Assembly (NCBI RefSeq): GCF_964194025.1
Contig: NC_134471.1
Coordinates: forward strand, 13,702,001 to 13,766,000
Length of the DNA stretch: 64,000 nt
From: Convolutriloba macropyga
Lineage: Eukaryota
Direction: 5' to 3'
Below are positions 1 through 38,094 of this stretch, in pieces (the stretch's first letter is position 1; each line of letters begins with the position of its first letter). Made by a program: the position numbers and the translations under genes. The notes under the pieces are model-generated. The model was given only the letters and a program-made list of their open reading frames with translations. It was not told the DNA's origin and searched no databases.

Positions 1-722
1 CATAATAGCTAAAGTCTACATTATTCTTTTTAACTAAACCCTTTTGCACAATAATTCTATTGTCATTACTAGGATCAATACTAGGCACACACCACGATAT
101 ATCTCTGATATCAATATTACCACCATTACCAACTGCATCAGCACCAGCATTAACTCTAAATAGAGCTCTATCATTATTATTTCTTTTTATTATTATTTTA
201 AATCCTAAACCACATGTAATCTTTTCTAAATCATTTACGAAACCAAATATATATCACTCATCTTAATCATCCTATACAAATGACCTCGTTCTGCAGCAAA
301 ATGGTCACCTTTAAGTCAACTATCTCTATTACCTTGATTTGATTTCTAACAAAACCACTCTCATATTCATCATCAGTACTAGTTAATAACTTATACATCA
401 ATAGATTAGGATGGCAATGATCTATATATTCAATAGTCCTACCACCACTAGTTTCAAGCTTAAGTGAACTAAATAATGCCATTTTACCATAATTAACTAA
501 TCTGATATTAGCATTATCAGCAAATACACCACCAGCATCATCTGATACAACAAACTCTATCTCTAGATATGAATCACGCAAATTTAAATGATTCTCTTCT
601 ATATTGAGTATGATATTAACATTAGTATTTATTGTTTCTAGACTATTTGGTTAGTGCTTTATAATCTTACTTTTGTGTATATCATTTTTATAGCCATAAG
701 TTGTGTCCAAATTAAATTCCAT
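1..722 (-). pseudogene. Polinton major capsid protein, copy 1 (N-terminal part, runs off the window)
   Basis: ATG at 722; DSYLEIEFVV..NYGKMALFSSLKLETSGGRTIEYID; reverse complement of 8855-9569; stop and frameshifts. Confidence 0.8.
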
Positions 723-738
723 TTTTGTAAGTCAAAAA

Positions 739-1613
739 CTGTCCGATAACTTAATTCTAAATGAACTACAAAAGATACATGAAGCGCTAACCAAAACTAA
801 AGAAGAACATACACTTAACTTTAGAATGTGAAAGCCAACAAAAAAATTTAACTTTAGCGAACCTATACTTAACTGGTCAAAATTAGGTTTAATTAGATTA
901 TCTGTTATAATTCGGTGTTTAATGTGGATAGAGGGAACAATCAGTTCTTATATGATACAAAAGGTGAAACATGGTCAGATACCCATATTTTAGCTGTTAT
1001 ACCAGGTGCATATGAATCAATCAAAATAGCAGAATTAATAAAAGAAGAAATTAATGGTAATGTTATAATAGAACCTGATAAGAATACAATGAAAAATTTA
1101 ATGGAAATAAAACAAGGTGCAATTAACTTTGACATAGAAAATTCAATAGCCCCATTACTAGGATTTAGAAAAATAGTTTATAAAAAAGGTAACTATACAT
1201 CTCAGAAAATTGTTGATATTATGGGTTTTAGTACTATTAACATTCATTGTAATCTCATATCTGGTGTTAAAGATAATGGGAATAACACAGACATGCTATA
1301 TATTTTACTCTAACAGAACCACCAGGTTACTTGATAAATATTATACCAACTAATATCTTGTATCAAAATGTAACTAAAGATAGAATAGAATATATAGAGT
1401 TTCATATTAAAGATGAACATGGAAGACCTATAGATTTTAATGGGGATGTATTAAGTGGCGATGTACTTGATAAACATTATACCAACTATTATCTTGAATC
1501 AAAATGTAACTAAAGATAGAATAGAATATATAGAGTTTCATATTAAAGATGAGCATGGAAGACCAATAGATTTTAATGGCGATGTATTAAGTTTTACTTT
1601 ACATTTGATATAA
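739..1613 (+). pseudogene. Polinton minor capsid (penton) protein, copy 1
   Basis: Penton-type C-terminal motifs NIHCNLISG..PPGYLINIIP..IKDEHGRPIDFNGDVLSFTLHLI; start codon is CTG; frameshifts; internal duplication 1328-1456/1464-1592. Confidence 0.8.
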
Positions 1614-1697
1614 ACATAAATATAAATATAAATATAACTATGAATATAACTATAGATATAGATTGATCAATTTGAATTAATATTTCTCCCATAAAAT

Positions 1698-1983
1698 ATG
1701 ATTAGTACTAAATGTGATAGTTGTAAAAATAAACCATGGAGTCAATGTTGTGATTGGTGTTTGGGTAAACCATTCCACTGTTTTATATGTAATAAAAGTG
1801 TAAGAAAAACAAGAACACATGCAATATCATTATTATGATAAAGCGGAGGACATGCTCTGCCATCTGTCAATTTGAAAACGAGTGAAGCTCTTGGTTAACC
1901 AAACAACTTCGTTTAGCAGTTTCACTGATCCTAATTACACATGTAAATCATGTACAAATTATAATAGAAACCCACCACTATAG
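1698..1983 (+). pseudogene. Small Cys-rich / C2H2 zinc-finger protein of the Polinton, copy 1
   Basis: MISTKCDSCKNKPWSQCCDWC..HCFICNKSVR, then after a frameshift KQEHMQYH..TCKSC; mirrored at 7696-7980. Confidence 0.55.
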
Positions 1984-2092
1984 TTATAATTAATTATAAT
2001 TAGATATAATTAGTTACATATATAACATTAGCATAATATTCAATTGCAATCTGTTTTTAAATAGTAGCTTAGTTATTCTCATTTAATTTATA

Positions 2093-3244
2093 CTACAAAA
2101 CTATCCGATCCCAATTAATTCTTAGTTTACCATTAATATTTTTATCTTTAGTTATATCAATGACAATACAATTATAAGGCTATTTCCATACCTTATTACA
2201 TATATTAGCAAAATCATTATAACTAAGTTCAATTTTAATAAAGATATCTTGATGTATCGATGCTAGGACTTTACTTCTCTGTTCAAATAAAAAAAATAGA
2301 TTACAGTTCCCTCTAAAACTCTGCCCATCCAGAGAGAACAGGTTTTGATTAAGATAGATCATATTGCAATTATTATGTCTACCTCTACAAAAGTATTAGT
2401 TAATAACTGGTTCTTTGGCTCTAACATCATCGAATATCATTAGTTTCTTTAAGTCTTTGGATAGTTTATCAGGAGATGGTAAATCTTTTATATCTTTAAT
2501 AAAAATTTAATAACAAATTATCTTTTTAATTGCTTTTGGGTTTTTTCTTTCTAATCCATTGTATTGATCACCACTAGATCCAATGATGTATAGTTTATCA
2601 AAATAAATACTAGCTAGAATTAGTTTTTTTTGATAAAAATGTCTTACCACATTCACCAGGACCAGATATTATACATCTAAATTTATCTGGGAATTCAGCT
2701 TCAGTAATTATATCATCATCATTTAGCCATGATTGTAGATTTTCATTTCTGTTTACATAGATATTGTTACTATGACCTTCTTTGGTGTTAGATTTACCCC
2801 ATTGATAATTTTCATCAAAAAAGTATAAAAAATTATCATTAAAATTATCATTATCATTAACATTAACATTATCATTAACATTATCATTATCATTAACATT
2901 ATCATTATCATTAACATTATCATTACCATTATCATTATCAATATCATTAACATTAACATTGTCATTATCTTTATCATTAACTTTATCTTTAACACTATCA
3001 TTATCTTTATCATTAACATTATCTTTAACAGTATCATTATCTTTATCATTATCATTATAATTATCATTAACATTTTCTTTAACATTATCATTATCAAAAA
3101 CTTTATTAGCAAAACTACTTCGTAGATCATTAACATTATCATTATCATTATCTTTACTACAACCTAAAAAAAACACTCATTATACATCCCCTGATATTTA
3201 CATTGATTAAGTAGAATATTTAAAGCACTTTTATTTCTAAATCT
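2093..3244 (-). pseudogene. Packaging ATPase (A32/FtsK-HerA-like) with upstream in-frame Asp/Asn linker, copy A
   Basis: Walker A GPGECGKT, Walker B LMIFDD, RGRH motif, IYLNQ and NCNLFFLF; frameshifted. Confidence 0.88.
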
Positions 3245-3250
3245 AGGCTC

Positions 3251-6200
3251 TAATGAAAGAAAACAACAACATTATGAACCTTTTTGTGGGGCTTATTGTT
3301 TATACATGATCTGTCTTAATGATAGAGGATTTAGAAATAAAAGTGATTTAAATATTCTAGTTAATCAATGTAAATATCAGGGGATATATAATGAGTGTTT
3401 TTGTTTAGGTTGTAGAAAAGATTTAATGATAATGATAATGTTAATGATCTACGAAGTAGCTTTGCTAATAAAATTATTGATAATGATAAAGTTAATGAAA
3501 ATGTTAAGGATAATTATAATGATTATGATAAAGATAATGATAGTGTTAATGATAATGATAATGCTAATGATAATGATAATGTTAATGATAAAGATAATGT
3601 TAATGATAATGATAATGTTAATGATAATGTTAATGATAATGATAAAGTTAATGATAATGATATTGTTAATGATAATGATAATTTTAAGGATAATGAAAGA
3701 AAACAACAATATTATGAACATTTTTGTGGGGCTTATTGTTTATACATGATCTGTCTTATTGATAGAGAATTTAGAAATAAAAGTGATTTAAATATTCTTG
3801 TTAATCAATGTAAAAATCAGGGGATATATAATGAGTGTTTTTGTTTAGGTTGTAGTAAAGATTTAATGATAATGATAATGTTGATGATCCACGAAGTAGC
3901 TTTGCTAATAAAATTATTTATAATGATAATGTTAATGAAAATGTTAAGGATAATTATAATGTTAATGATAAAGATAATGATAATGTTAATGATAATGATA
4001 ATGATAATGATAAAGATAATGATTTTGTTAAAGATAAAGTTAATGATAATGCTAATGATAATGATAATGTTAATGATAAAGAAAATGTTAATGATAACGA
4101 TAATGTTAATGATAATGTTAATGATAATGATAATGTTAATGATAATGATAATGTTAATGATAATGATAATTTTAATGATAATTTTATATATCTATTTGAT
4201 GAAAAACATCAATGGGGTAAACCTAACAACAAAGAATGTCTTAGTAACAATATCTATGTAAACAAAAATGAAAATCTACAACCATGGCTAAATGATAGTG
4301 ATATAATTACTGAAGCTGAATTCCCAGATAACTTTAGATGTATAATATCTGGTCCTGGTGAATGTGGTAAGACATTTTTATTAAAAAAACTTAAATTAGC
4401 TAGTATATATTTTGATAAACTATACATCATTGGATCTAGTGGTGATCAATACAATGGATTAGAAAGAATAAACCCAAAAGCAATTATAGAAAGATAAATT
4501 TTTATTAAATTTTTATTAAAGATATAAAAGATTTATCATCTCCTGATAAACTAACCAAAGACTTCAAGAAACTAATGATATTCGATGATGTTAGAGCCAA
4601 AGAAACAGTTATTAATGAAAACTTTTGTAGAGGTAGACATAATAATTGCACTATGATCTATCTTAATCAAAACCTGTTCTCTCTGGATGGGCAGAGTTTT
4701 AGAGAGAACTGTAATCTAATTTTTTTTATTTGAACAGAGAGGTAAAGTCCTAGCATCAATATATCAAGATATCTTTAATAATATTGAACTTAGTTATAAT
4801 GATTTTGCTAATATATGTAATAAGGTATGGAAAGAGCCTTATAATTATATTATCATTGATATAACTAAAAATAAAAATATTAATGATAAACTAAAAATTA
4901 ATTGGGATCGGAGAGTTTTGTAGTATAAATTAAATGAGAATAACTAAGCTACTATTTAAAAACAGATTGCAATTAATTATTATGCTAATGTTATATATGT
5001 AACTAATTAATATAGGATTTAGAAATAAAAGTGATTTAAATATTCTAGTTAACAAAATCATTATCTTTATCATTATCATTATCATTATCATTAACATTAT
5101 CATTATCTTTATCATTAACATTATAATCATCCTTAACATTTTCATTAACATTATCATTATCAATAATTTTATTAGCAAAGCTACTTCGTAGATCATTAAC
5201 ATTATCATTATCATTATCTTTACTACAACCTAAACAAAAACACTCATTATACATCCCCTGATATTTACATTGATTAAGTAGAATATTTAAAGCACTTTTA
5301 TTTCTAAATCTAGGCTCTAATGAAAGAAAACAACAATATTATGAACCTTTTTGTGGGGCTTATTGTTTATACATGATCTGTCTTAATGATAGAGGATTTA
5401 GAAATAAAAGTGATTTAAATATTCTAGTTAATCAATGTAAAAATCAGGGGATATATAATGAGTGTTTTTGTTTAGGTTGTAGTAAAGATTTAATGATAAT
5501 GATAATGTTGATGATCTACGAAGTAGTTTTGCTAATAAATTTATTGATAATGATAATGTTAATGAAAATGTTAAGGATAATTATAATGGTAATGATAAAG
5601 ATAATGATAATGTTAATGATAATGATAATGATAATGATAAAGATAATGATTTTATTAAAGATAAAGTTAATGATAAAGATAATGATAATGTTAATGCTAA
5701 TGATAATGCTAATGATAATGATAATGTTAATGATAAAGATAATGTAAATGACAATGATAATGTTAATGATAATGTTAATGATAATGATAAAGTTAATGAT
5801 AATGATATTGTTAATGATAATGATAATTGTAAGGATAATGAAAGAAAACAACAATATTATGAACATTTTTGTGGGGCTTATTGTTTATACATGATCTGTC
5901 TTATTGATAGAGAATTTAGAAATAAAAGTGATTTAAATATTCTAGTTAATCAACGTAAAAATCAGGGGATATATAATGAGTGTTTTTGTTTAGGTTGTAG
6001 TAAAGATTTAATGATAATGATAATGTTGATGATCTACGAAGTAGTTTTGCTAATAAATTTATTGATAATGATAATGTTAATGAAAATGTTAAGGATAATT
6101 ATAATGGTAATGATAAAGATAATGATAATGTTAATGATAATGATAATGATAATGATAAAGATAATGATTTTATTAAAGATAAAGTTAATGATAAAGATAA

Positions 6201-6850
6201 TGATAATGTTAATGCTAATGATAATGCTAATGATAATGATAATGTTAATGATAAAGATAATGTAAATGACAATGATAATGTTAATGATAATGTTAATGAT
6301 AATGATAAAGTTAATGATAATGATATTGTTAATGATAATGATAATTGTAAGGATAATGAAAGAAAACAACAATATTATGAACATTTTTGTGGGGCTTATT
6401 GTTTATACATGATCTGTCTTATTGATAGAGAATTTAGAAATAAAAGTGATTTAAATATTCTAGTTAATCAACGTAAAAATCAGGGGATATATAATGAGTG
6501 TTTTTGTTTAGGTTGTAGTAAAGATTTAATGATAATGATAATGTTGATGATCTACGAAGTAGTTTTGCTAATAAATTTATTGATAATGATAATGTTAATG
6601 AAAATGTTAAGGATAATTATAATGGTAATGATAAAGATAATGATAATGTTAATGATAATGATAATGATAATGATAAAGATAATGATTTTGTTAAAGATAA
6701 AGTTAATGATAATGCTAATGATAATGATAATGTTAATGATAAAGAAAATGTTAATGATAACGATAATGTTAATGATAATGTTAATGATAATGATAATGTT
6801 AATGATAATGATAATGTTAATGATAATGATAATTTTAATGATAATTTTAT
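3251..6850 (+). repeat. Tandem and inverted amplification of a protease-C-terminus + (GATAAT)n unit
   Basis: Unit starts TAATGAAAGAAAACAAC at 3251, 3691, 5318, 5836 and 6354 (periods 440 and 518 bp); inverted piece at about 5048-5311. Confidence 0.9.
3691..4923 (+). pseudogene. Adenain protease C-terminus - DN linker - packaging ATPase, copy B
   Basis: QQYYEHFCGAYCLYMI (C5 protease Gln/Cys motif), then DN repeats, GPGECGKT, LMIFDD, RGRH; stop at 4921-4923; frameshifts. Confidence 0.85.
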
Positions 6851-7586
6851 ATATCTATTTGATGAAAAACATCAATGGGGTAAACCTAACAACAAAGAAT
6901 GTCTTAGTAACAATATCTATGTAAACAAAAATGAAAATCTACAACCATGGCTAAATGATAGTGATATAATTACTGAAGCTGAATTCCCAGATAACTTTAG
7001 ATGTATAATATCTGGTCTTGGTGAATGTGGTAAGACATTTTTATTAAAAAAACTTAAATTAGCTAGTATATATTTTGATAAACTATACATCATTGGATCT
7101 AGTGGTGATCAATACAATGGATTAGAAAGAATAAACCCAAAAGCAATTATAGAAAGATAAATTTTTATTAAATTTTTATTAAAGATATAAAAGATTTATC
7201 GTCTCCTGATAAACTAACCAAGGCTTCAAGAAACTAATGATATTCGATGATGTTAGAGCCAAAGAACCAGTTATTAATGAATACTTTTGTAGAGGTAGAC
7301 ATAATAATTGCAATATGATCTATCTTAATCAAAACCTGTTCTCTCTGGATGGGCAGAGTTTTAGAGAGAACGGTAACCTAATTTTTTTTTATTTGAACAG
7401 AGAGGTAAAGTCCTAGCATCGATATATCAAGATATCTTTATTAATATTAAACTTAGTTATAATGATTTTGCTAATATATGTAATAAGGTATGGAAAGAGC
7501 CTTATAATTATATTATCATTGATATAACTAAAAATAAAAATTTTAATGATAAACTCAGAATTAATTGGGATCGGAGAGTTTTGTAG
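6354..7586 (+). pseudogene. Adenain protease C-terminus - DN linker - packaging ATPase, copy C
   Basis: Near-duplicate of copy B; Walker A reads GLGECGKT. Confidence 0.85.
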
Positions 7587-7695
7587 TATAAATTAAAAGA
7601 GAATAACTAAGCTACTATTTAAAAACAGATTGCAATTAATTATTATGCTAATGTTATATATGTAACTATTTAAATCTAATTATAATTAATTATAA

Positions 7696-7980
7696 CTATA
7701 GTGGGGGGTTTCTATTATATTTTGTACATGATTTAAATGTATAATTAGGATCAGTGAAACTGCTAAACGAAGTTGTTTGGTTAAACACGAGCTTCACTCG
7801 TTTTCAAATTGGCAGATGGCAGAGCATGTCCTCCGCTTTATAATAATAATGATATTGCATGTGTTCTTGTTTTTCTTACACTTTTGTTACATATAAAACA
7901 GTGGAATGGTTTACCCAAACACCAATCACAACATTGACTCCATGGTTTTTTTTACAACTATCACATTTAGTACTAAACTT
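7696..7980 (-). pseudogene. Small Cys-rich / zinc-finger protein, copy 2
   Basis: Reverse complement of 1698-1983; start codon mutated. Confidence 0.5.
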
Positions 7981-8039
7981 ATTTTATGGGAGAAATATTA
8001 TTTCGAATTGATCAATCTATATCTTTAGTTATAATTATA

Positions 8040-8105
8040 GTTATATTTATATTAATATTTATATTTATATTTATATTTATATTTATATTTATATTTATAT
8101 TTATA
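8040..8105. repeat. (TATATT)n hexamer microsatellite between converging Polinton genes
   Basis: Directly visible; longer than its mirror at about 1610-1650. Confidence 0.9.
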
Positions 8106-8838
8106 TCAAATGTAAAGTAAAACTTAATACATCGCCATTAAAATCTATAGGTCTTCCATGCTCATCTTTAATATGAAACTCTATATATTCTATTCTATCT
8201 CTAGTTACATTTTGATACAAGATATTAGTTGGTATAATATTTATCAAGTAACCTGGTGGTTCAGTTAGAGTAAAATATATAGTATGTCTGTGTTATTCCC
8301 ATTATCTTTAACACCAGATGTCACATTACATTGAATGTTAATAGTAATAAAACCGATAATATCGACATATTTCTGATATGTATATTTATCTTTTTTATAA
8401 ACTATTTTTCTAAATCCTAGTAATGGGGCTATTGAATTTTCTATGTCAAATTAATTGCACCTTCTTTTATTTCTATTAAACTCTTCATTGTATTCTTATC
8501 AGGTTCTTTTATAGCATTACCATTAGTTTTTTCTTTTAAAAATTCTGCTATTTCGATTAATTCATATGCACCTGGTATAACAGCTAAAATATGGGTATCT
8601 GACCATGTTTCATCTTGTGTATCATATAAGTAATGATTGTTCCTTCTATTTACATTAAACAGCGAATTATAAACAGATAATCTAATTAAACCTAATTTTG
8701 AGGATTTAAGTATAGGTTTGCTAAAGTTAAATTTTTTGTTGGCTTTCACATTTTAAAGTTAAGTGTATGTTCTTCTTTAGTTTTAGATAGCGTTTCATGT
8801 ATCTTTTGTAGTTCATATAGAATTAAGTTATCGGACAT
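8101..8838 (-). pseudogene. Polinton minor capsid (penton) protein, copy 2
   Basis: ATG at 8838 (MSDNLIL); ORF 8441-8749; C-terminal GRPIDFNGDVLSFTLHLI; disrupted. Confidence 0.8.
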
Positions 8839-8854
8839 TTTTTGACTTACAAAA

Positions 8855-10084
8855 TTGGAATTTAATTTGGACACAACTTATGGCTATAATAATGATATAA
8901 ACAAAAGTAAGATTATAAAGTACAAACCAAATAGTCTAGCAACAATGAGTCTTAATATTAATATCATACTCAATGGAGAACAGAATCATTTAAATTTGCT
9001 TGATTCATATCTAGAGATAGAGTTTGTATTATCAGATGATGCTGGTGGTGTATTTGCTGATAATGCTAATATCAGATTAGTTAATTATGGTATGATGGCA
9101 TTATTTAGTTCACTTAAGCTTGAAACTAGTGGTGGTAGGACTATTGAATATATAGATCATTGCCATCCTAATCTATTGATGTATAATATATTAATTAGTA
9201 CTGATAATGATTATGAGAGTGGTTTTGTTAGAAATCAAGGTAATAGAGATAGTCGACTTAAAGGTGACCATTTTATTGCAGAACGAGTTCATATGTATAT
9301 GATGATTAAGATGAGTGATCTATTTGGAATCGTAAATGATTTAGAAAACATTACATGTGGTTTAGGATTTAAACTAATATTAAAAAGAAATAATAATGAT
9401 AGAGCTCTATTTAGAGTTAATTCTGGTGCTGATGCAGTTGGTAATGATGGTAATATTGATATCAGAGATATATCGTGGTGTGTTCCTAGTATTGATCCTA
9501 GTAATGACAATAGAATTATTGTGCAAAAGAGTTTAGTTAAAAAGAATAATGTAGATTTTAGCTATTATGAAAGAAAGACATTTTATAAGAATGTACCCAA
9601 TGCTACTAACTTCTTGTTTAATCTAGGTATGTAAAGTGGTATGGAAATACCATAATATATAATAGTTGGTTTTGAAAATAATAATGTTAATGAACAAACT
9701 CATGAACAATTTCATATAATGAATGTCACTGAATGTTATTGTAAGATTGGTAGTGAATTTTATCCCGAGGATAGAATGAATATTAATTATGGTACTAATA
9801 TTTATAATGAGGCTTTCAAAGAGATTGATAGCTTTAATAAAGATTATAATGGGTTACCACATAATATAAAACCGTATATAAATCATAGAACAATCAAAAT
9901 TAGTTATAGAATATATGTATTCGATACTAGATATCAAAGTGATCATATAGGACCACAACCAATACAACTTAATTTTAATTTTAGTGCTGCAGTTGCAGAT
10001 GTTATATGTCATGCATTAGTACTAACTAGAAAGGTTATTGGTGTTAATAGTGATGGTAATAATATGTTTGATATAGCCTTGTAG
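8855..10084 (+). pseudogene. Polinton major capsid protein (double jelly-roll), copy 2, full span
   Basis: ORFs 8855-9634 and 9719-10084 are in the same frame, separated by in-frame stops; CKIGSEFYP and RIYVFDTRYQ motifs; about 410 codons; start is TTG. Confidence 0.82.
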
Positions 10085-10141
10085 AAACTAATAACCGAAG
10101 GTCTATAATATCATAATTATAATTAGCCCTAGTCATTATAA

Positions 10142-10309
10142 CTATTTCTTATTTGTCTTAACAAAACCTTTAGCAAAAATAATATCTAGTTTTTTTTTAT
10201 TCTAAAGAGCTAAGCCTCCAGCTTCAAGCTTATTCTTAGTCTTAAGCCTAACCTTAGGCTTAGGCTTAGGTTTAATAACAATAAAGGGATTATACTTTTT
10301 AACTTCCAT
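10142..10309 (-). pseudogene. Small basic protein (KPKPKP..LEAGG), possible virion core protein
   Basis: MEVKKYNPFIVIKPKPKPKVRLKTKNKLEAGGLAL read directly; premature stop; function is inference. Confidence 0.35.
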
Positions 10310-10327
10310 TATTTTTTATTTATAGAA

Positions 10328-10753
10328 ATGATTCTTTTAAACAAGTTCAAAACTAATTCTTATTGTGTTGGAGGCAGACATTATAGTGGTACTATTATTA
10401 TAAGTGGAGCTATTACTTCAAAAAGTACTAAAATGTTAAGAGGATCCTGCACTAAATGTGGAAGGAATAAATCAATGCCAGTATCTGATGCAACAATAGA
10501 AGCAGAGGGAATGAACGATTTCTTTAAAAGTGTTGGCAGAGCTACAGTTAACTTCTGAAAGAAAGTTGCTAATAATCCAGTCAGTGCATTAGAAATAGCA
10601 AGTAAAATAGGAGCTGCAGCTGCATCTAGAAACCCTAGAGCTGCTTTATCAGCCACACCTGATTTAGTTAAATTTGCAACTACTGGTGAAGGTATAAAGG
10701 TAGTACAAAAAAAAGAGGGTTATACTTAGGTACTAAGAAGAATAATTATTTGA
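10328..10753 (+). pseudogene. Zinc-ribbon (DUF5679-like) plus amphipathic-helix protein, putative core protein
   Basis: YCVGGRH..KMLRGSCTKCGRNKS, then EGMNDFFKSVGRATVNF*KKVANNP..; one in-frame stop at 10556-10558. Confidence 0.55.
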
Positions 10754-10889
10754 TTATGATTATGATTATATTATGTATTTGATTATGATTATATTATTTT
10801 TATGATTATGATTACGATTATGATTATATTTATGTTATGTTTATGATTAATATTACTAAACATACTATTATTACTAAACACTATTAACT

Positions 10890-11474
10890 TTAGTTTGAAA
10901 AAATAATCAGTTTGTTTTTCTTGTTCCTCTTATAATCCTCACATACCTTAACTAATTCCTTATACTCATCATTATCTGTTTTATTATCTTTCATTGATTT
11001 AGTATATAGTCTATTAAACTTGTCAGTAAACTGTTTACTTAAAACATACATTTGTGAATACTTTATAATTTTTTTTCAATTTTAGTGATAATTGTTTTTG
11101 ATAATTATTCACAAACAGTTGCCGTAGCAACAGCTGTTGGTATAGAATAAAGTAATCCTATACCTGTTAATGCAACTGATGTTGTTGTTGCAGTTGTTGC
11201 TATAGATGATAAAACTATTTCTGTTATCTCAGCTATGTTAATATAATTTTTATATCTACTTAACTTCTTATTATATTTATTAATTTCAGTTTCATAATAA
11301 TTTCTAATATCTTTTATAATATTAATATTGTTGTTAAATTTATTATTGGCAGAAATCTTTTCATTTATGTATTGTTCATTAACGGTTTACAAGTTGGGAT
11401 ATAGTAATCTCTCACTCGCGCCTCGGTGCTGTTGGTTGACTCATGGACTCCGTCATAGCTTTACTTATTTTCAT
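10890..11474 (-). pseudogene. Coiled-coil plus hydrophobic-hairpin membrane protein of the Polinton
   Basis: IKDIRNYYETEINKYNKKLSRYK..IVLSSIATTATTTSVALTGIGLLYSIPTAVATA..SMKDNKTDNDEY; stops and frameshifts. Confidence 0.55.
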
Positions 11475-11475
11475 T

Positions 11476-12177: not shown

Positions 12178-12211
12178 TATTTATATTAAGAAATAAATCC
12201 GGCTTGCCTGG

Positions 12212-13095: not shown

Positions 13096-13098
13096 TAG

Positions 13099-14107: not shown

Positions 14108-14115
14108 GTTTTCAT

Positions 14116-21136: not shown

Positions 21137-21316
21137 AAATTCTTTGGTTTGCGCAGAGTGAAATTGTCATCTTGCAGGTTAATTGTGATATTTAAATCCC
21201 GGATTTAAGATAAAATATGAAATTCGTTACCTTATGTATTTTAAAGAAAAAGTGACATTTAACTAAAATTAGTATTACTAATACAGAAGTTTCATTAATG
21301 CTCAAAGGATGTCAGC

Positions 21317-21653: not shown

Positions 21654-21745
21654 CTCCCGGCAAGAAAAGGCAACATTTGAAATGAAAATGTAGACACAAT
21701 AAAATAAAGCACAAAAAAGTTTCTTTCTGATATTGAGTTTTTGTT

Positions 21746-21784
<39 letters not shown>

Positions 21785-27637: not shown

Positions 27638-27980
27638 TGTTTATACTCATCGGCCTAAGTCTTGCATACCAAGACAACTTTTCATTAATATTTGTATTTC
27701 TGAAATTCACAACCATGGTAGCAAGTCAAGTTTTATAAATACATCATAACTCGCGCCATTGGCACACAAGTTGTGCTTAAAAACGGGAAACCCCTTACTA
27801 TAAATAATATTGAAAGTGAATGTCAACCACTTCTGACTTCTTCAATAAAATCAACTTAAACAAATAGCTTCAATGGAAATAGGTTGGGTTGGGGGAATGG
27901 AAATCAGGAAATGAATGGGTTTTGGAGGACGAAAGTGTAGGTGGGGGGAGGAAAATATAAAGGAACTTGGTTCCTTTACA
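27638..27980 (-). repeat. 5' LTR of left Bel/Pao copy
   Basis: TGTAAAGG...ATAAACA, followed on the element strand by TTTCTGGCGTATCC. Confidence 0.92.
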
Positions 27981-28095
27981 TCAGCGCTTCTCCGGAGCTG
28001 TTTTCTGGTTCAATCATAAAAATATTTTACTAGACCAGACTGTGCCAAACGATGCGTAATCTTTCAATCGTTATTTTAAAAGGAGAATTCTCGAT

Positions 28096-29210
28096 AGTAG
28101 TAGTAGTAGGAAAAAGTGCTATTCCGCCACTTCCTAATCGGAAGATGACTAAATACCACCTTTTGCCCACTACTCTATATATCTACTACTTGCTTATACC
28201 CCTAATTTATTCACTACTATATATTATCTTGTTTTATCCACTACTACAAGTTACCTTTATATTCACTCAAAATCTATCATTTCTTGTCTCACTCAGTGCA
28301 AACCACTAGTTTCGAGTTAAGCTGGTAACTAACTGTTGTCAGACAGATAGTTCGGGTTCTATCGGTGAAACTGCTTCGCAGATCCCTACTGACTCCAGTG
28401 GACGTATGCCAGATACTAGTATAAAACTAGTGAGACCGTGTAAAAAGCACGTAAAACTAACTTGCGAAAGTTGATGTAACCACTTCGTGGATAACCTGAA
28501 TAAAGAAACCAGCTTAACTCTATAATTTTTAAACTTTTTATAATATTTTGCGAATCACTCTTTAAGAGCGATTCACTCTTATTCGGGTTGATCCCCCAGT
28601 AGAAAGATCGCTCTTTTTCGCTCTTGAAGAGTGATTCCCTCTTTTCTGATATTTATTTTATTTATTTAAACTTTTTTTTCAAATTATCACCACTCTTCAA
28701 TAAGTTTATATTTTCTTTTACTTTTTCTATATTTAACCCATTATTAATAAGAAATGATACAAAATTATAATATTTACACGAACAACTTTCCTCAATTTGG
28801 CTATTAACTGAAGGACTCACAGTCTTGCTTTGTCAACTAGTATTAATTGTTTTCTGACTCAAATCAGTGTAAGGATCTTCGGTCTTGGTTCCCCAACTGC
28901 TTGGCTTGCCACGGACGTCGTCCATTCGCAGATTTCTACTAAATACTAAATCCTCTAGTTAATTCTACATCTGGATGTTGTTTCTTTACATGAGCCCGTA
29001 TTTCATAATATCTCACAACAGAAGTACAATATGGACAATTAACTTTAGCTGAAGTACAACTTCTACAAGTATCCTTACTCTCATCAAAATCAGTTACTGG
29101 TTTTACATAATTACATTTATTACAACTTCTAATAAAGACTTCTGGGTTAAGATTAGGGTTAGGGTTAGGCTTAAGTTTAAGGTTAGGGTTAAGGTTAGGG
29201 TTAGGGTTAG
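28096..29210 (+). mobile_element. Polinton terminus (terminal repeat region and adjacent zinc-finger ORF), left arm
   Basis: Begins AGTAGTAGTAGTAG, the typical Polinton 5' end; shares the 23-bp hairpin motif with the internal Polinton genes. Confidence 0.8.
28650..29210 (-). pseudogene. Zinc-finger protein with N-terminal (Asn-Pro)n tract, left copy
   Basis: NPNPNLNP..RSCNKC..TCRSC..NCPYC..HVKKQH; true N-terminus lost at the fold-back. Confidence 0.6.
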
Positions 29211-29305
29211 CCCTTAACCCAACCCTAACCTTAACCCTAACCCTAACCCTAACCTTAACCATAACCCTAACCTTAACCTTAAGCCTAACCCTAACCCTAA
29301 TCTTA
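29146..29305. repeat. Head-to-head telomere-like tract (TTAGGG)n then (CCCTAA)n
   Basis: About 11 degenerate TTAGGG/TTAAGG units up to 29210, then about 15 CCCTAA/CCTTAA units. Confidence 0.9.
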
Positions 29306-30346
29306 AACCAGAAGTCTTTATTAGAAGTTGTAATAAATGTAATTATGTAAAACCACTAACTGATTTTGATGAGAATAGGTATACATGTAGACGTTGTACT
29401 TCAGCTAAAGTTAATTGTCCATATTGTACTTCTGTTGTGAGATATTATGGAATACGGGCTCATGTAAAGAAACAACATCCAGATGTATAAATAACTAGAG
29501 GATTTAGTAGAAATCTGCGAACGGACGAAATTCGTGCAAAGCCAAGCAGTTGGGGAACCAAGACCAAATGTCCTTACACTGATTTGAGTCAGAAAACAAT
29601 TAATACTAGTTGACAAAGCAAGACTGTAAGTCCTTTAGTTATTAGCCAAACTGAGGAAAGTTGTTCGTGTAAATATTATAATTTTGTATCATTTCCTATT
29701 AATAATGGTTTAAATATAGAAAAAGTAAAAGAAAATATAAATTTATTGAAGAGTAGAGATAATTTGAAATAAAAGTATAAAAAAATAAAACAAATATCAG
29801 AAGAGAGGGAATCACTCTTCAAGAGCGAAAGAGAGCAATCTTTCTACTGGGGGATCAGCCCGAATAAGAGTGAATCGCTCTTAAAGAGTGATTCGCAAAA
29901 TATTAGAAAAAATTTAAAAATTATAGAGTTAAGCTGGTTTTTTTTTCAGGTTATCCACGAAGTGGTTACATCAACTTTCGCAAGTTGGTTTTACGTGATT
30001 GTTACACGGTCTCACTAGTTTTATACTAGTATCTGGGATACGTCCACTGGAGTCAGTAGGGATCTGCGAAGCAGTTTCACTGATAGAACCCGAACTATCT
30101 GTCTGACAACAGTTAGTTACCAGCTTAACTCGAAACTAGTGGTTTGCACTAAGTGAATCAAGAATTGATAGATTTTGAGTGAATATAAAGGTAATTTGTA
30201 GTAGTGGATAAAACAAGCTAATATATAGTAGTGAATAAATTAGGGGTATAAGCAAGTAGTAGATATATAGAGTAGTGGGCAAAAGGTGGTATTTAGTCAT
30301 CTTCCGATTAGGAAGTGGCGGAATAGCACTTTTTCCAACTACTACT
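29211..30346 (-). mobile_element. Polinton terminus, right arm (mirror)
   Basis: Ends ..CCAACTACTACT at 30346; reverse complement of 28096-29210. Confidence 0.8.
29221..29772 (+). pseudogene. Zinc-finger protein with (Asn-Pro)n tract, right copy
   Basis: Same reading as the left copy, with in-frame stops. Confidence 0.55.
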
Positions 30347-30461
30347 ATTGAAAATTCTCCTTTTAAGATAAAGATTGAAAGATTACGCCTCGTTTCGCAC
30401 AGTCTGGTCTAGTAAAATATTTTTATGTTTGAACCAGAAAACAGCTCCGGAGAAGCGCTGA

Positions 30462-33400
30462 TGTAAAGGAACCAAGTTCCTTTATATTTTCCTCCCCCCA
30501 CCTACACTTTCGTCCTCCAAAACCCATTCATTTCTCGGTTTCCATTCCCCCAACCCAACCTATTTCCATTGAAGCTATTTATTTAGGTTGATTTTATTGA
30601 AGAAGTCAGAAGTGGCTGACATTCACTTTCAATATTATTTATAGTAAGGGATTTCCCGTTTTTGTTGTCCCCCACCTGAAGTTGTCCCCCCACCAGTGTC
30701 AGTAGACACACACATTAGTCGAAAGTTAGCCACCACAGGTTAGGATTCTTTCTGTCGCGCTCGAAAAACAAATAGGCAACCGGACAAAAAATTATAATTG
30801 TCTACGTTTGTAAGATTTTCACTGATTAGTGAAAAGGTTTAACTCTATACAACTTATTAATGAAGCTTCATCAAATTTCACTGATTAGTGATTGCGACAA
30901 GCCAAAACATAGCAAACAAACATTAAGCGAAAATTATTAGCTAAGCACAGTAAGCAACAGCCTCATTTAAAGTATAGGTTTTAACAAAACAAAAGAAAGA
31001 ATAGGGCTGTTACAAGGAAACATAGTGCAGTAACAGTGCAGTATAAACTTTGTAAAATAAGAAAAAACTTCTAAAGCAGTCAATATTCCAAACAAGTCCA
31101 AAGCATCATCAGCAGCAAAGAACAGCCTAAAGCAACATCTTCAGTTGAAAGTGATAGAGTGGAACGCAGTAAAAGACCTCTTCGAAGAACAAAGCAATAG
31201 TAACGAAGTTCTAAGCATACTACGTGAAACTTTGGAAATCTTGAGGTCTCAAAAAGAGCAGTTAGACAGAAGTTGCAATGAACTCATGAAGCTACAGCTG
31301 TCAAGTGAAGAGTTGACAACACTTGCTAATGAATCTGCTGAAAGAAACACAACCATGCTGAAATGCAAACAGAGAGCAAAAGCACACAGAACAGATGCAA
31401 GTGACACTGAATCGGCTTTTAATACATCAGCAGCGCCTTCCCCTAATCTATTGAGAAAACAGTACCCTTTACGCAATAGAGCAATGAAACATCATTTTGC
31501 AAGCCGCAACAATCAGGAAAGTAACAACGCTGACTCGTCCGACTCGGAAGACCCCGATAATTCTCAACCCGTTCTGAACATTGAAGAGAGAGGAAGAAAC
31601 CGGGAATTTCTCACAGGGGCACTGAGAACAGATAAACGAATGAGAGAAGAGAACAATGTTCAAGGGCAGAGCCGACATGAGGGTGAGGACAGCAGAGCAG
31701 GGCATTTGCAACAAAAATGTTCTTTTCACAACAATAACCAGGCTGCTCCGACCATGAGCCATAGGTACACACCGTTAACCAATCAATCAACTACCAGTGA
31801 ACAATTTCAGCTGACCTGATGGACACAATAACAACGGCTATAACAACAACTTATACAATGGCTTTCCGAGTTTCCCACCAGACTGGATGCAACACCAAGC
31901 ACTGATGATACAGAACACATCGAGTTTGTCTAAGATTTCAATTGACAATTTCACTGGTGATCCTCTGAGATGGCATCAGTGGTTCAGTTTCTTCAAACCA
32001 ACCATTCACAACAACATTGGCCTCTCAGACGTCCAAAAAACGACATACCTCCAAAACTCAGTAACTCACAAAGCAAGAGAGTCCATAAGTGGATACTCCT
32101 ACAATGGGGATTACTACCACAAAGCCATCGGTGAATTGACCAGAAAGTTTGGCAAACTACAGCATATTGTCGCTGCATACATGGATCAATTGGAGAAGTG
32201 GCCAAAACCCAGATTAGACGAACCAAACGCTTTTGTGAGCTTCTCATCTTTCTTGAGGAGACTTTTACAAACCTTCCGACTCCACAACTTTGAAGCTGAT
32301 CTGAAGTCTTCAGCTGTCTTGAGAATGGCCAGAGACAAATTGAACCCTAAAATGATAATCAGATGGAATCAACACACAAGAAGCCACGGCTTGCTGCAAC
32401 CTATTCTTACCCACTTTGCTGAATGGATTGACTCATACGCAGAGGCGTGCAAACATATCTCCCCACAACAGAACCAGAGAACCAGAGTGAACACGTTTTC
32501 TAGAAGGGGGCCCTCAGATGTTTCATGTCAGCTCTGCTCACAAAACCACAACCCTGGTCGTTGTCCCGAATACTTGGAAAAGTCAGTGTATGACCGACAG
32601 GGTTGTGTGAGGAGGTTCAATCTCTGCCCTAACTGTCTAAGAGCTCACGAAAAAATTCTCTGCCAATCGAAAACAAGGTGCCTTGTGGACAGACGCAATG
32701 GCTTCCATCACTCAATGCTCCATAGGACAGATGCAAGGCAACAGCAACAAAATGCACAACCAATCTGGAACGGGAATCAAAACTCACAAAACAATGTCTT
32801 CAGAAACCAAACAAACCAAAACCAGTCAAGCTATGGACGTAACTTTAATAATGAAAACCAAAGGCAGCAGACGAGTTCAAACTACAACCAACAGAATGAA
32901 AACCAGAACAGGCAAAGTGGATCTAATAGCAGCACTCCACAGAGGGGCAACTGGAACAAAAGCGGTTTTCACCCTCAGCCTATGAACGCGCAGAACAACG
33001 TCAGCAGACAGCAGACGATACCAGTAACACTTTTCAACAGAGTTCTTTGCATTTAAACCTACGCCTTGTTAGACAGTGGCAGTGACAACACTCAAATGAC
33101 ACAGAAAGTTGCTGATACACTTCAATGTCAGCAACCGAAAGACATAACTCTACCACTAGCTTCACTTCACGGTGAACACTCAGTTAAAACAGCAGATGTC
33201 AAGATCGGCATAGGAGATTTGTGCAGCAGTTGTCCCGTGATCAGAATCCCTGCGTACGCAACAGCAATGGTGGAGTTTCGAGTGCCAAGAGTTCAAATTG
33301 AAAGTTGAATGAGATCTGCAGAGACCATTCTCACCTCCAGAACAAAAGATTTCCAGCAATCAGAGACAACCGGATCAAAATTCTGATTGGAGCAGATGCA

Positions 33401-36400
33401 TTAGAGAACGCTACGATGAAACCATCAAAAAAGATTTGGATGAAAACTACATCACAACTGCCGACGCCAATTGCAGACACTCTGTCTGGTACCTTCCCCA
33501 TCACCCAGTGATCAACAAACAGAAACCAGACAAAATCCGCAGAGTCACAAATGCTGCTTCCAAATATAAAGGTACCTCACTCAATGATGCACTGCTGACA
33601 GGGCCTGATCTACTCTGCAACCTGCATGGCCTTCTTCTCCGCTTCAGACAGTACTCAGTGGCAATCACAGCTGACATCGAGGCAATGTTCATGCAGATTG
33701 GCATCCAACCACAAAACTAGGACTATCTCCGTTTTTTGTAGACACAGAATGGCAATGAAAAGGTCTTCAAATGCAATCGACTCAATTTCGGAGCCTCATG
33801 ATCACCTTTTTGTGCGATTTTTGTTCTGCAAAAGTGTGCAAATGACCACAAACAAGAAGATCCAGAGGCCTGCACATCAATCATGCAGCAGTTCTACATG
33901 GATGATTTCATGCAGACTTAACCTTCTGAGGAGGAGGCCCGCAGAAGTGCAGATGAGATCAAAACTGTTTTGCATACAGGAGGATTCAATCTGACAAAGT
34001 TCCTGAGCAACAGACGAGCCGCATTAGATAACCTTCTGGAAGACGACAAGGCGGAGATGAAAGCTCAAAGAATCCTTGGTCAGGCGTGGGACCCCAAAAA
34101 TGACAAGTTGATGTTTGCAAAACCGAAGCTTCTCTACACAGGACAACAGATGACTCAAAGAAATGTGCTATCAATGGCAGCTTCTCTGTTCGATCCAGGC
34201 GGAATGATTTCACCATTTGCCATCAGAATTAGATGCATTCTGCAAAGAATCATTAAAAAGGGAAGAAATTGGGATCAACCTGTGTCGGAATGCTACCAAC
34301 AGGAACTACAGGAGTAGATGGATGGTTTCGACAGCATGACTTCAATCAAAATTTCTAGATGTTTGATTCCCAGCATCAATGGAACCTATCAACTACGCAC
34401 GTTCACTGACGGCTCAATGAGTGCAATTGCTGCCATAGTTTATGTGAGGACAACCAAAGCCGATGGATCTTCCACATCACGATATGTGATCAGTAAAACA
34501 AAAGTGGCGCCAATCAAGCAGCTGAGCATTCCAAAACTGGAATTGGAAGCGGCAACACTTGGAGCAGAGCTAGCTGGATTCTGTGAGAGCGAGATGACAA
34601 CAACCATAAGTTCAAAACACTTTTGGACAGACAGCACCGCAACACTTGGATGAATTCAATCAAAGCAGAAACAGAAGATGTATATTGCTAACAGATGGAC
34701 CAAAATTCACGAGAATTCCAACCCGGACAATTGGAGACACATCCCTAGAAAGATGAATCCCGCTGACCACGGCACACGAGGCCTCAACCCATCAGACATA
34801 CCAAAGCTGTGGCTTCAACCACCGGACTTTCTGAGCACACCTCAAGACTCCTGGGTTTTTGCCGAAAACAGTAATCCCCACATATGCGCTACACAAGCGA
34901 CACAACTTCAGACGCCAGTCATTGAGGTTGAAAAATTTTCAACATGGATTCGACTACTCAACTCTACTAGAATGGTGTTCCAGGCAATAACACGCTTCAA
35001 GAAAAAGTCCGAATTAGAAGACAAAACAAATCACCTGAGAACTCAAACAATGACATTCTTGCATCAGATGAGAAAAGGGCAAGGAACTACCTCATCAAAA
35101 TGTCCCCAAACGAGTTGTTGTCAGGAACAATTTCTGCACTGTTGAAGGGAGACAATCTTGAGAAAGGAGACAAGCTGATGCCCTTCACACCTTTTCTAGA
35201 TGACGACGGACTCTTGAGGGCAGGAGGAAGACTCAACAAGGCACCTCTAACCTACAGTGTGAAACATCCTCTTGTTCTCCATAGCAGGAGCAAAATTGCA
35301 TGACTGTTGATTGAAAAGGCGCACCATGACTGTGTCCATCAGGGCGTGGAACATGTGAAGGCTCACCTGCAAAAATTTTTCATGATGATTGGATTGAGAA
35401 AAGTGCTGCAAAGTCTGGGGAAGTACTGTTTCATTTGCAGACGATGGAGGGCAGACATTGTGAGACCGAAGATGGCCGATCTTCTTGAATTCAGATTTCC
35501 AGATGCAAACAAGCAGTACCCCTTCGTCAACACAAGAATGGACATGTTTGGACCAATCTAGATTGAGGACAAGAGAGAGAGGGCACCCAGATGCACTACG
35601 TCTGCTTGTTCACATGCCTGTACAACAGAGCTGTCCACCTAGAAGTATGCCATGACCTCTCAACCGATTGTCTTCTCATGACCATCCGCAGATTTGTATC
35701 GCGACGTGGATACCCTGACCTGATTGTGAGTGACAAAAGCAAAAACTTCATTCGAGCCAACCAAGCAATGAGGTTTAATTTCCAGAGAAGCTACAAGCCA
35801 GACAACGAGTACATCAGACTGCAATTGGCTCAACAGAACATTCAGTGGACTTTCAACCCTCCATTGGCACCAAACTTTGGAGGAGTCTGGGAGAGGCTGA
35901 CACAGACTGCGAAGGGGAGTCTACTAACAGTGCTGGGCAGTCTGAAACTAACACTCTCAGTTTTCCAGACATTTGTGGCAGAGGCCGAGGCAATTTTGAA
36001 CTCCAGACCATTAACTCATGTGGGCTGCAGCATCTCAGATGAGGGACCACTTACTTCGAATCACTTCCGCCTTCGCAGACCTCAAATGTGTTTGAAACCT
36101 CTTGCGAACAGCAACCAGCGGTTCTCCACTAAGGATTTCAAGTTGACGCAGACACTACTTGATCACCACTTGAACAGGTTGATGAAGGAATATATTCCCA
36201 AGCTCAACAAGAGAACGAAGTGGCAAAGGTCAAATGATGAGCTGGATGAGGGTGACATTGTTTGGAAGCTCAAGGACTTCACACCCAGAGGCATCTGGCC
36301 TCTCAGGAAGATTGTGAAAGCACACAGAAGTTCAGGCGGAATAGCCAGGAGCTTCGACATCCAGACTTCTACAGGAATGGTACAGAGACCAGCAGTAACC

Positions 36401-36911
36401 TTAAGTCGTGTATTCCCACAATTGTCAGGTGCGCCGGAGGGTCACCGAAACAAGTTCCTTGAAACACACACACACACACACAAACCAAAAACTCAATATC
36501 AGAAGAAACTTTTTTGTGCTTTATTTTATTGTGTCTACATTTTCATTTCAAATGTTGCCTTTTCTTGCCGGGAGTGTAAAGGAACCAAGTTCCTTTATAT
36601 TTTCCTCCACCACCTACACTTTCGTCCTCCAAAACCCATTCATTTCCTGATTTCCATTCCCCCAACCTATTTCCATTAAAGCTATTTATTTAAGTTGATT
36701 TTATTGAAGAAGTCAGAAGTGGTTGACATTCACTTTCAATATTATTTATAGTAAGGGATTTCCCGTTTTTAAGCACAACTTGTGTGCCAATGGCGCGAAT
36801 TATGATGTATTTATAGAGCTTGACTTGCTACCATGGTTGTGAATTTCAGAAATACAAATATTAATGAAAAGTTATCTTGGTATGCAAGATTTAGGCCGAA
36901 AAGCATAAACA
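30462..36911 (+). mobile_element. Bel/Pao LTR retrotransposon, right copy
   Basis: TSD GCTGA at 30457-30461 and 36912-36916; 5' LTR 30462 to about 30663, truncated by a deletion that also removes the PBS; 3' LTR 36575-36911; gag (FTGDPLRW..QKTTYL, zinc knuckles), PR, RT, RNase H and IN with many stops; about 0.4-kb deletion at 33403. Confidence 0.95.
36575..36911 (+). repeat. 3' LTR of right Bel/Pao copy
   Basis: TGTAAAGG..GCATAAACA, preceded by CCGGGAG. Confidence 0.92.
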
Positions 36912-38094
36912 GCTGACATCCTTTGAGCATTAATGAACCTTCTGTATTAGTAATACTAATTTTAGTTAAATGTCACTTTTTCTGTAAAATACTTAAGGTA
37001 ACGAGTTTCATATTTTATCTTAAATCCGGGAAATTAAATATCACAATTAACCTGCAAGATGACAATTTCACTCTGCGCAAACAAAAGAATTTGTGGGATA
37101 TGCTAATGAACTGATTAACAAAAATCGAACACAAATTTTTTGTTTATTGGTTTGCGTATACTCAATATTTATATCAACATCATGATACTACCATACGAAA
37201 TTGACAACCAGGATCTCTATTTTAAGTTTCATGTCTGAACACTTTTTGTTTCATTGTATCAAAAATACCAGAATTGTGAAATCTAAAAAAAAACAATTCT
37301 AAAAGTATTCTACTAAAAAAGAACCTAATTTTGGCGAGTAGGTTTGCTCGAAAATGTCTCCATTTTTGAAAATTCGAGTCAAACAGTTTAGTTTTAACCT
37401 TATGTGGACAACAGTGATATTGAGGAGAAGCATTTGATATCTACGATTACTAATTTTGCATTTGATATCTACGATTACTAATTTTAAACAAGTGTCACAT
37501 CAGTGCCACGTCAATCCTCGCCGTGTCCCTAGTCGAGACCTGGAATCATTAAAAGACAGTCCTCGACAGATTTAAGGTATGAAAAGACTGTCCTCGGCAG
37601 ATATTGGGTATGAAAAGAATTTTTCTGGACCTAATGTGATGTCCTGGACTTTGGCTGGAACTAAAACAACCATCCTTGAATTTGGCTTGAACTTAAACAT
37701 ACGTCCTGGAATTTGGCTGGACAAAAGTGATCTAGAATTTGGCTGGATCGATATCAGTTGTTCTGGAATTTGCAAGCTCTTTTTTTTGGAAACAAAAAGA
37801 AATTAAATTGTCACTGAAACACAGAAACGTTTGATGGAGTATTGAACTTGTGAATTTGAGGACATGCTACAACAAACATTTGGTCAATCAAAAATTTGTC
37901 AACGCTAAAAAGTGCTAAGAGATGTAAGATTAGCGGTGAATTTGAATCAATGATTTGCGCTAAATGCAATGAATGTGGTGAAAAAAAATTCACCGCTAAA
38001 AATAGCAATTCTTACAAAAATTCACCACTAAATTCACCGCTAATCTTTCATCATTTAATGTAAAAGAAACCAATTTGTCAAATTAAAATTACTT

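Follow-up and report, generated by a model that had tools for sequence, protein, structure and literature searches.

Fold-back inverted duplications have been described by Hermetz (2014; PMC3907307) and by Al-Zain (2023; PMC10622511). The cases described there share a single-copy loop, little or only short inverted microhomology, loss of adjacent DNA and a far end that was rescued by a second join. Here we describe a locus in Convolutriloba macropyga that resembles them in its loops, its loss of DNA and its further join, and perhaps in its microhomology at the turns. It lies in a stretch of 64,000 nt (NCBI RefSeq assembly GCF_964194025.1, contig NC_134471.1, positions 13,702,001 to 13,766,000 of the forward strand; hereafter the window, in whose positions all coordinates are given). 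Its first 37,095 nt hold three consecutive giant palindromes, most of whose DNA belongs to one element of the Polinton/Maverick type. We propose that the locus probably arose when the host repaired a break in the germline, in one burst that comprised three fold-backs and one join with 2-bp microhomology and was followed by neutral drift.

Three palindromes and a fourth junction

The palindromes were mapped using self-BLAST and exact-word diagonals over the whole window. Three inverted pairs were detected, each kilobases long with E = 0 and 93-99% identity, and this self-comparison agrees with the places at which the initial annotation had reported three giant fold-back palindromes. In the first palindrome (P1), 1-3242 pairs with 6432-9569, and the left arm leaves the window at its edge. 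In the second (P2), 14430-17802 pairs with 17817-21136 across a 14-nt spacer, and in the third (P3), 21135-29210 pairs with 29211-37095. The region 1-37095 is free of N (the only run of N in the window is at 62515-62660), and 63% of it is Polinton DNA, which makes up a single Polinton-type element (1-21136 and 28098-30349).

The three turns fall within 26 kb, the arms are about 3-8 kb long, and the loops measure 88, 14 and ~32 nt. At all three turns, an inverted copy is accompanied by a single-copy spacer, as in a fold-back inverted duplication. The palindromes are all head to head, the genes are oriented outward from each centre, and the derivative order is A' A B B' Y' Y. The statement that every turn is inside Polinton DNA holds for the three fold-backs but not for a fourth junction, at 21135-21136, which joins polymerase sequence of the element to host DNA. 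As a pattern, moreover, the statement is not supported, since the turns belong to one locus and hence are not independent events. Self-comparison of the window's 27 kb of non-Polinton DNA revealed tandem duplications and no long inverted ones, and no Rfam match was found in the window.

A broken member of a large Polinton family

The element has in common with described Polintons/Mavericks (PMC4028283; 10.1101/2023.08.22.554363) a protein-primed DNA polymerase B (pPolB), a double jelly-roll capsid and a gene at the penton position, and also has an integrase-like frame, a putative packaging ATPase and a putative protease. It differs from them in that the protease, an Asn-Asp (ND) linker and the ATPase are in one frame, and in that this copy is broken and rearranged. 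The pPolB gene, which is broken in both of its copies, matched PF03175 (DNA_pol_B_2) above the cut-off at 19732-20169 (E=8e-8). The capsid gene matched PF21738 (double jelly-roll) at 9656-10081 (E=6e-7; relative P0005, E=7e-25). The broken integrase-like frame at 12212-12874 (minus strand) gave a weak match only to PF00665 (rve, E=0.21), and integrase-like motifs were recognized in it by eye. The packaging ATPase was assigned tentatively from a Walker A motif and weak P-loop matches in relatives. In family proteins P0377-P0496, a single frame of ~490-550 residues encodes the protease, a long ND repeat linker and this ATPase. The protease part gave a weak match only to Pfam C39 (E=0.15), and we take it tentatively to be a protease from its cysteine motif. 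Both motifs, Walker A among them, were present in 62 of the 120 relatives of the fused protease-ATPase.

Polintons are bounded by terminal inverted repeats at both ends and a target duplication of 5-8 bp. The only Polinton end in the window lies at 28098 and is mirrored at 30349; the window does not contain the partner end. An AG start, such as that of the AGT repeat at 28098, is typical of Polinton ends. The family comprises 941 capsid clusters at ~80% identity, and all members among the 120 listed, other than the window's own, are on ENA contigs. With a family capsid protein as the query, viral and JGI metagenome contigs yielded no related loci.

Divergence and shared damage of the arms

Over their whole lengths, the arms of P1, P2 and P3 differ by 218/3130, 166/3310 and 264/6914 substitutions (6.9, 5.0 and 3.8%) and by 14, 8 and 19 gaps. 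The differences of a few percent that had been reported from the first reading of the sequence are consistent with these values, and most of them are substitutions. Decay of CpG was rejected as their cause, as it accounts for only 9, 11 and 34 of the 218, 166 and 264 substitutions. The Polinton parts of the arms differ by 145/2509 (5.8%), 159/3210 (5.0%) and 49/1008 (4.9%), without significant difference among them (Fisher p = 0.17, 1.0 and 0.33). In the test of P1 against P2, a misaligned 136-nt tandem repeat had inflated the difference to p = 0.01, and p = 0.17 was obtained after cleaning. The three palindromes are of about equal age.

There was no bias among codon positions 1, 2 and 3, which carry 95, 76 and 79 differences, respectively, in 1454 Polinton codons (p = 0.29; ~126 capsid codons were counted twice) and 56, 51 and 50 differences in 1336 codons of a Bel/Pao retrotransposon that is contained in both arms of P3 (p = 0.82). 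Synonymous and non-synonymous differences are in the ratio 33:179 in the Polinton and 29:100 in Bel. The absence of codon-position bias suggests that the arms have drifted like neutral DNA since the duplication.

Part of the damage is common to both arms. At 38 positions, the right arm of P2 departs from nearly all family contigs; these are the sites used of the 40 listed (278 more exist), one family-split site and one in a long terminal repeat (LTR) having been dropped. The left arm carries the same letter at 14 of the 38 and differs at the other 24, suggesting that the element had decayed for about one third of its age before the duplication, which would amount to a decay of about 1.5%. Three of seven rare capsid residues of the P1 left arm are also present in its right arm, and five of the six stop codons checked are common to both arms. 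The shared pPolB stop (20170-20172 = 15395-15393) is absent from family contigs, and the shared Bel stop (33054-33056 = 25617-25615) could be either damage or the natural end of gag. Both had been noticed in the initial annotation. Further shared stops are located at 34651-34653 in Bel, at 7158-7160 in the ATPase gene and at 19729-19731 in pPolB. The shared stops and the shared private sites support the earlier conclusion that the element was already damaged before it was duplicated. Judged from these letters, the arms appear to be copies of one already decayed insertion.

Turn 1 and its later re-duplication

The left arm of P1 (1-3242, minus strand) is an inverted copy of the C-part of the protease, the ND linker, the packaging ATPase, the penton gene and the start of the major capsid gene. 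The fold-back (3242-3330) turns at 3242/3243, inside the fused protease-ATPase gene, with an 88-nt single-copy loop. The right arm (6432-9569, plus strand) comprises the broken ATPase gene, the penton gene (minus strand) and the 5' part of the double jelly-roll major capsid gene. The latter extends over 8855-10081 (plus strand), has two in-frame stops and is 82% identical to a natural family protein. It reaches into the middle of the Polinton (9570-14429), which is single in the window and includes the broken integrase-like frame. A 136-nt tandem duplication is present at 1328-1592, in the left arm of P1 only.

In the initial annotation, the arms of P1 stand about 3.2 kb apart. The pairing is as described; the apparent spacer (3243-6431) is a later tandem duplication. 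It consists of a tandem copy of protease C-part/ND units and the ATPase (3243-5009, plus strand), a templated insertion of ~40 nt copied from the protease C-part at the tandem-duplication junction (5010-5048, plus strand), a second copy of the fold-back (5049-5630, with an inverted piece at 5049-5309 and the turn at 5309/5310), and tandem units of 440-518 nt of protease C-part and ND repeat (5310-6431, plus strand). The forward ATPase copy at 4183-5009 differs by 1.9% from that at 6846-7672 and by 5.7% from that of the left arm. Between the left (L), middle (M) and right (R) copies, the differences are 47/823 (L-M), 51/822 (L-R) and 16/826 (M-R). Rare residues group the copies as ((M,R),L), four being common to all three and three only to the two forward copies. 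The duplicated turn differs from the first copy of turn 1 at 17/532 positions. Within it, an inverted piece of 92 nt shows no difference from the end of the left arm and 4-5/92 differences from the forward units. A read chimera could not be re-duplicated and then mutate, and hence could not give such a nested pattern. Family proteins extend a median of 114 residues upstream of the cysteine motif, and none of the 120 showed the mirrored letters.

Turn 2 and the join to host DNA

The left arm of P2 (14430-17802, minus strand) contains the broken pPolB gene and the right arm (17817-21136, plus strand) a truncated copy of it. The fold-back (17803-17816) has a 14-nt loop; pPolB probably starts ~135 nt downstream of it. 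The right arm ends at the junction of pPolB with host DNA (21135-21136), where there is 2-bp microhomology. Family contigs match the locus from ~17804 rightwards and have different letters leftwards, indicating that the mirror at turn 2 is not native. Judged by where family sequences begin to match, inverted microhomology would amount to ~1 nt for turn 2 and to no more than ~3 nt for turn 1.

Public-run contigs from four runs (X1-X4), which belong to one study with at most two samples and may be the assembly's own source, were compared over 17690-21735. These runs contain 28-33% of the words of 17820-27600, and no RNA run was among the holders listed for those words. None of the public-run contigs listed (13,374 more pieces exist) bridges 17810 or 21135; as contigs lose rare forms beside high-copy repeats, this is no test of the junctions. 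In each run, a 700-nt contig goes from the host piece adjoining the junction into more host-side sequence, not into pPolB. There were no strand changes at the 15 joints listed among family contigs (50 more exist). At 17690-18229, where pPolB has its 5' end, family contigs are several-fold deeper than along most of the gene body, as if many deleted derivatives retained this end; family copies show many internal deletions.

P3, the Bel/Pao element and the telomere-like centre

The left arm of P3 begins with 182 nt of host DNA (21135-21316, minus strand), the mirror of 36912-37095. It continues with the left copy of the Bel/Pao retrotransposon (21317-27980, minus strand; LTRs at 21317-21653 and 27638-27980), 117 nt of host DNA between the Bel 5' LTR and the Polinton end (27981-28097), and the Polinton terminus with a zinc-finger gene (28098-29210, minus strand). 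At the fold-back (29144-29300), telomere-like hexamer arrays stand head to head with an asymmetric part of ~32 nt. The right arm carries the zinc-finger gene, whose 5' part is lost, and the Polinton terminus (29211-30349, plus strand), followed by the right copy of Bel/Pao (30462-36911, plus strand; 5-bp target duplication at 30457-30461 and 36912-36916). Its outer end is host DNA (36912-37095, plus strand) that runs on as ordinary host DNA.

The retrotransposon was assigned to Bel/Pao by its two TG..CA LTRs, the target duplication and Pfam matches to DUF1759, Pao peptidase A17 and DUF5641. It does lie beyond the Polinton end, as in the path drawn earlier; its precise site, marked by the 5-bp target duplication, is in host DNA 117 bp outside that end. 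The two LTRs within one Bel copy differ from each other at 12/337 positions, suggesting that its insertion was not much older than the duplication.

The independent deletions that had been noted in the arms are represented in P3 by five one-sided losses: the right arm lacks 430, 71, 91 and 519 nt, and the left arm lacks 931 nt. A 433-nt run over the 3' LTR (21291-21723 and 36505-36938) is identical between the arms, is a candidate tract of arm-to-arm conversion, and was reached in 0/5000 permutations; a second identical run, of 267 nt, is located at 26820-27086. Arm-to-arm conversion is known for sex-chromosome palindromes. The identical runs in P3 likely reflect such conversion, or else an effect of assembly. 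Both versions of the 182-nt host piece were found in public-run contigs: X4 has the right arm's six substitutions and one insertion, and the contigs of X1-X3 are without that insertion and have 2-3 differences (3 in X2 and X3). This shows only that both versions are real DNA variants, and two alleles would look alike.

The hexamers at the centre of P3 read as the native Asn-Pro coding repeat of the family's zinc-finger gene. At least three Asn-Pro units are present in 23 of 63 other family zinc-finger proteins, with tracts of similar length. The natural sequence upstream of the tract is kept in 23 family proteins, and the mirror junction of turn 3 occurs in none of these 23 informative proteins. 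No telomerase-added, non-native repeats were recognized at the centre. In relatives P0164-P0226, a poly-serine run precedes the Asn-Pro tract that telomere-like hexamers encode. A zinc-finger gene of this kind in hundreds of copies would spread interstitial telomere-like arrays across the genome.

Proposed origin

The following course of events would account for the locus. One member of a Polinton family with very many copies inserted and began to decay, as the shared private changes show, and a Bel/Pao element inserted 117 bp beyond the Polinton end, in host DNA. Within the Polinton, a break or a stalled fork would then have removed a stretch that held gene starts; the protease-ATPase and zinc-finger genes have both lost their 5' parts at the locus. 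The observed order A' A B B' Y' Y would have resulted from fold-back priming, in which the loops were short (88, 14 and ~32 nt), together with one long-range join. Later came tandem duplications (~2%) that span turn 1, deletions that arose independently in the arms, and probably one or two patches of conversion. A single burst of break repair primed by fold-backs fits the equal ages, the short loops, the minimal microhomology and the lost gene starts.

The initial annotation had proposed serial template switching or breakage-fusion-bridge repair. Equal arm ages, the 2-bp microhomology and the 14 of 38 private sites present in both arms of P2 favor this proposal, within which template switching and breakage-fusion-bridge cycles are not separable at this locus. 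The further suggestion that the process had been seeded by a hairpin-rich provirus is not supported: family sequences have no mirror at the turns, inverted microhomology is at most about 1-3 nt at turns 1 and 2, and a mirror junction was present in 0/23 zinc-finger proteins. Should the protease gene be the native neighbour of the zinc-finger end, turns 1 and 3 would be the two sides of one break, and four strand switches would suffice with no extra junction. Such a path predicts a mirror of 9570-17816 and the other terminal repeat to the left of the window. If the zinc-finger end adjoins pPolB, turns 2 and 3 would flank the break, and one more switch would have to lie further left.

Several points weigh against a single burst of break repair. 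The path is not unique, because a tandem duplication followed by inversion and loss of the centre also yields B B' Y' Y. The structure is known from the assembled sequence only, and the loops are far shorter than those of human germline cases, which are 766 bp or more (PMC3907307). Divergence in P3 is lower over Bel (155/4350, 3.6%; p = 0.003 versus P2). Further, the differences within P3 are patchy (variance/mean 3.3), which requires conversion or composition-dependent rates and is also expected from two alleles. Finally, at the protein level, the best family copies (up to 90%) match the left capsid piece of P1 at least as well as its counterpart in the right arm does.

A single locus cannot show an enrichment of fold-backs at Polintons, and the turns do not recur in family-protein proxies, which detect only junctions within open frames. 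A screen of open frames for mirror pieces found them in 0/161 other capsid proteins and in 0/142 capsid representatives with a match (150 given), and recovered the window's own protein as a control. One of 63 zinc-finger proteins and one of 120 protease-ATPase proteins were flagged and then rejected, as the flags were low-complexity or weak matches elsewhere, not mirrors. A literature search, mostly without subscription papers and without supplements, found no paper on fold-back palindromes inside Polintons.

Alternative explanations

Palindromic chimeras abound in amplified long-read libraries (PMC6218980), and an assembler might have joined such fold-back chimeras, or two alleles, into an artificial locus. 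Two alleles would also fit the patchy divergence of P3 and the presence of both host-piece versions in one sample. The assembly may also be imperfect, to judge from two identical tandem copies of 911 nt at 58001-59826. However, the arms of a single-template chimera would not differ by 5% substitutions and kilobase deletions, and the differences are dominated by substitutions, not by indels of the read type. Moreover, turn 1 is present twice with its own later divergence, the three ATPase copies form a nested tree, and the junction at 21135 requires a rearranged molecule anyway; we therefore consider an artefact of assembly or library quite improbable. The element's own enzymes are a slightly poorer candidate still. 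They could have acted by snap-back while the element replicated by protein-primed strand displacement, or through its integrase by alternative transposition. All three turns lie within the element and close to gene starts, and Polintons are known to reshuffle host loci, as at eri-6/7 (10.1101/2024.01.15.575659). Against this, the arms of P3 reach 6.7 kb past the terminus, through 117 nt of host DNA, then 6.4 kb of Bel, then a further 182 nt of host DNA, indicating that the copy was made in the chromosome. There is no junction at a terminal repeat, the copy was already broken, as the shared polymerase stops attest, and no mirror pieces were found in the other family proteins screened. An integrated snap-back virus genome was rejected on the continuation of the P3 arms into host DNA and the lack of a terminal-repeat junction, and a composite insertion by alternative transposition was rejected, as each of the four primary junctions lies either inside the element or in host DNA and none at a transposon terminus with a target duplication.

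P3 by itself might be a telomere fusion, in which a break was healed by telomerase and sister ends fused at the telomere repeats, starting breakage-fusion-bridge cycles. The G-rich and then C-rich hexamers of its centre, with the G-rich strand directed at the break, have the appropriate polarity. This origin is nevertheless very improbable, because the tract is a native coding one (at least three Asn-Pro units in the 23 of 63 other zinc-finger proteins), and the array is degenerate in a codon-like way and mirrored unit for unit, with no stretch of perfect repeats added to it. It is scarcely credible that different copies of the family inserted independently, head to head, for which the hundreds of copies in the family and the P1 capsid piece, equally near to other copies, could be cited. 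Such an origin would not explain the shared private sites and stops, the absence of third-position bias, or mid-gene turns without termini, and in P3 the site at which Bel inserted and the host flank are common to both arms. For P2 and P3, such insertions are refuted.

A possible source of hairpin RNA

Killer loci have been shown mainly in maize. The initial annotation suggested that the locus could be a source of siRNA or piRNA. Read-through of the present palindromes would give multi-kilobase hairpin RNA, which might be diced to small RNAs that silence the Polinton and Bel families. This function would be compatible with an origin in break repair, and we judge it unlikely. The arms are 94-96% complementary over 3-7 kb, with loops of 14-88 nt, and cover the polymerase, the ATPase, the capsid and a whole retrotransposon. 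As RNA, 400-nt windows on the centres fold at -214 to -276 kcal/mol, which is trivial for any palindrome. An inverted duplication of transposon genes is present, with the anatomy of Mu killer (PMC3440606) and of Ac-silencing insertions (10.1101/2020.01.07.897926), and the target family, with its 941 capsid clusters, is very large. The 3' LTR of the left Bel copy (21317-21653) points into P2 and could drive read-through. On the other side, the arms decay neutrally and P3 has lost 2.1 kb of pairing by independent deletions, which gives no sign of upkeep, though a hairpin function would tolerate both. Further, all genes and 5' LTRs are directed away from the centres, and, given hundreds of genomic copies, an extra source of double-stranded RNA (dsRNA) may add little. 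A bolder version would make the locus a "Polinton killer": a repair accident made three stacked hairpin templates out of a dead endogenous DNA virus, LTR read-through feeds small RNAs that silence the family, the palindromes, with their unusually short loops, were kept in the germline as useful, and integrated Polintons are fold-back hot spots. We hold this version to be equally doubtful.

Other features of the window

An exon similar to DHX9/RNA helicase A (47436-47636, plus strand), which encodes the first dsRNA-binding domain (PDB match, E=8e-13), lies at a distance of 10 kb from the last palindrome. DHX9 resolves the dsRNA that inverted repeats form; the proximity is probably a coincidence. 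The exon and the types of element present both point to an animal host. After the DHX9-like exons there is a tandem duplication of ~2.6 kb (47758-50348 and 50356-53187), ~2% diverged, with reverse-transcriptase remnants inside. The 911-nt tandem pair at 58001-59826 has no substitutions and one 2-nt gap, lies in a gypsy-like gag-protease region, and is either a very recent duplication or an assembly slip. Three old copies of a non-coding unit of ~1 kb, with 66-76% identity, occupy 39824-43417. A fragment at 38494-38903 (minus strand) bears a GIY-YIG domain (Pfam E=1.6e-4) and is presumably Penelope-like.

Comparison with known systems

The locus would be a well-preserved fossil of complex germline break repair, whose palindromes lasted until their arms were 5% apart. 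One centre was eroded afterwards, and a patch of conversion is likely. We regard the locus as a neat case, not as evidence of a new mechanism. Its importance would be greater if Polintons proved rich in fold-backs or if small RNAs against the family came from it, as it would then bear on how animals first recognize and silence Polintons.

In contrast to the human cases of Hermetz (2014; PMC3907307), in which loops are 766-70,466 bp, the locus has three turns with loops of 14-88 nt, is interstitial, and shows 5% divergence between arms. It resembles the local n-jump clusters of Li (2020; PMC7025897), in which duplications and loss are linked by inverted junctions on one derivative chromosome, and the eroded inverted triplications attributed to origin-dependent inverted-repeat amplification (ODIRA; Brewer, 2024; PMC10766186), in which the palindrome centre was rearranged later. 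Unlike these, it is germline, inherited and decayed, not somatic or recent, and B B' Y' Y is no simple inverted triplication. With Mu killer and the Ac-silencing composite insertions of maize (PMC3440606; 10.1101/2020.01.07.897926), the locus shares an inverted duplication of a damaged transposon's genes and possible read-through hairpin RNA. The maize killers, however, are transcribed, diced and silencing, and the Ac cases form at transposon ends by alternative transposition, whereas here the turns are internal and known from DNA alone. As in the eri-6/7 region of C. elegans (10.1101/2024.01.15.575659), Polinton remnants are found at a rearranged animal locus; there, several insertions and their terminal repeats drive the inversion of a host gene, whereas here one insertion was folded internally.

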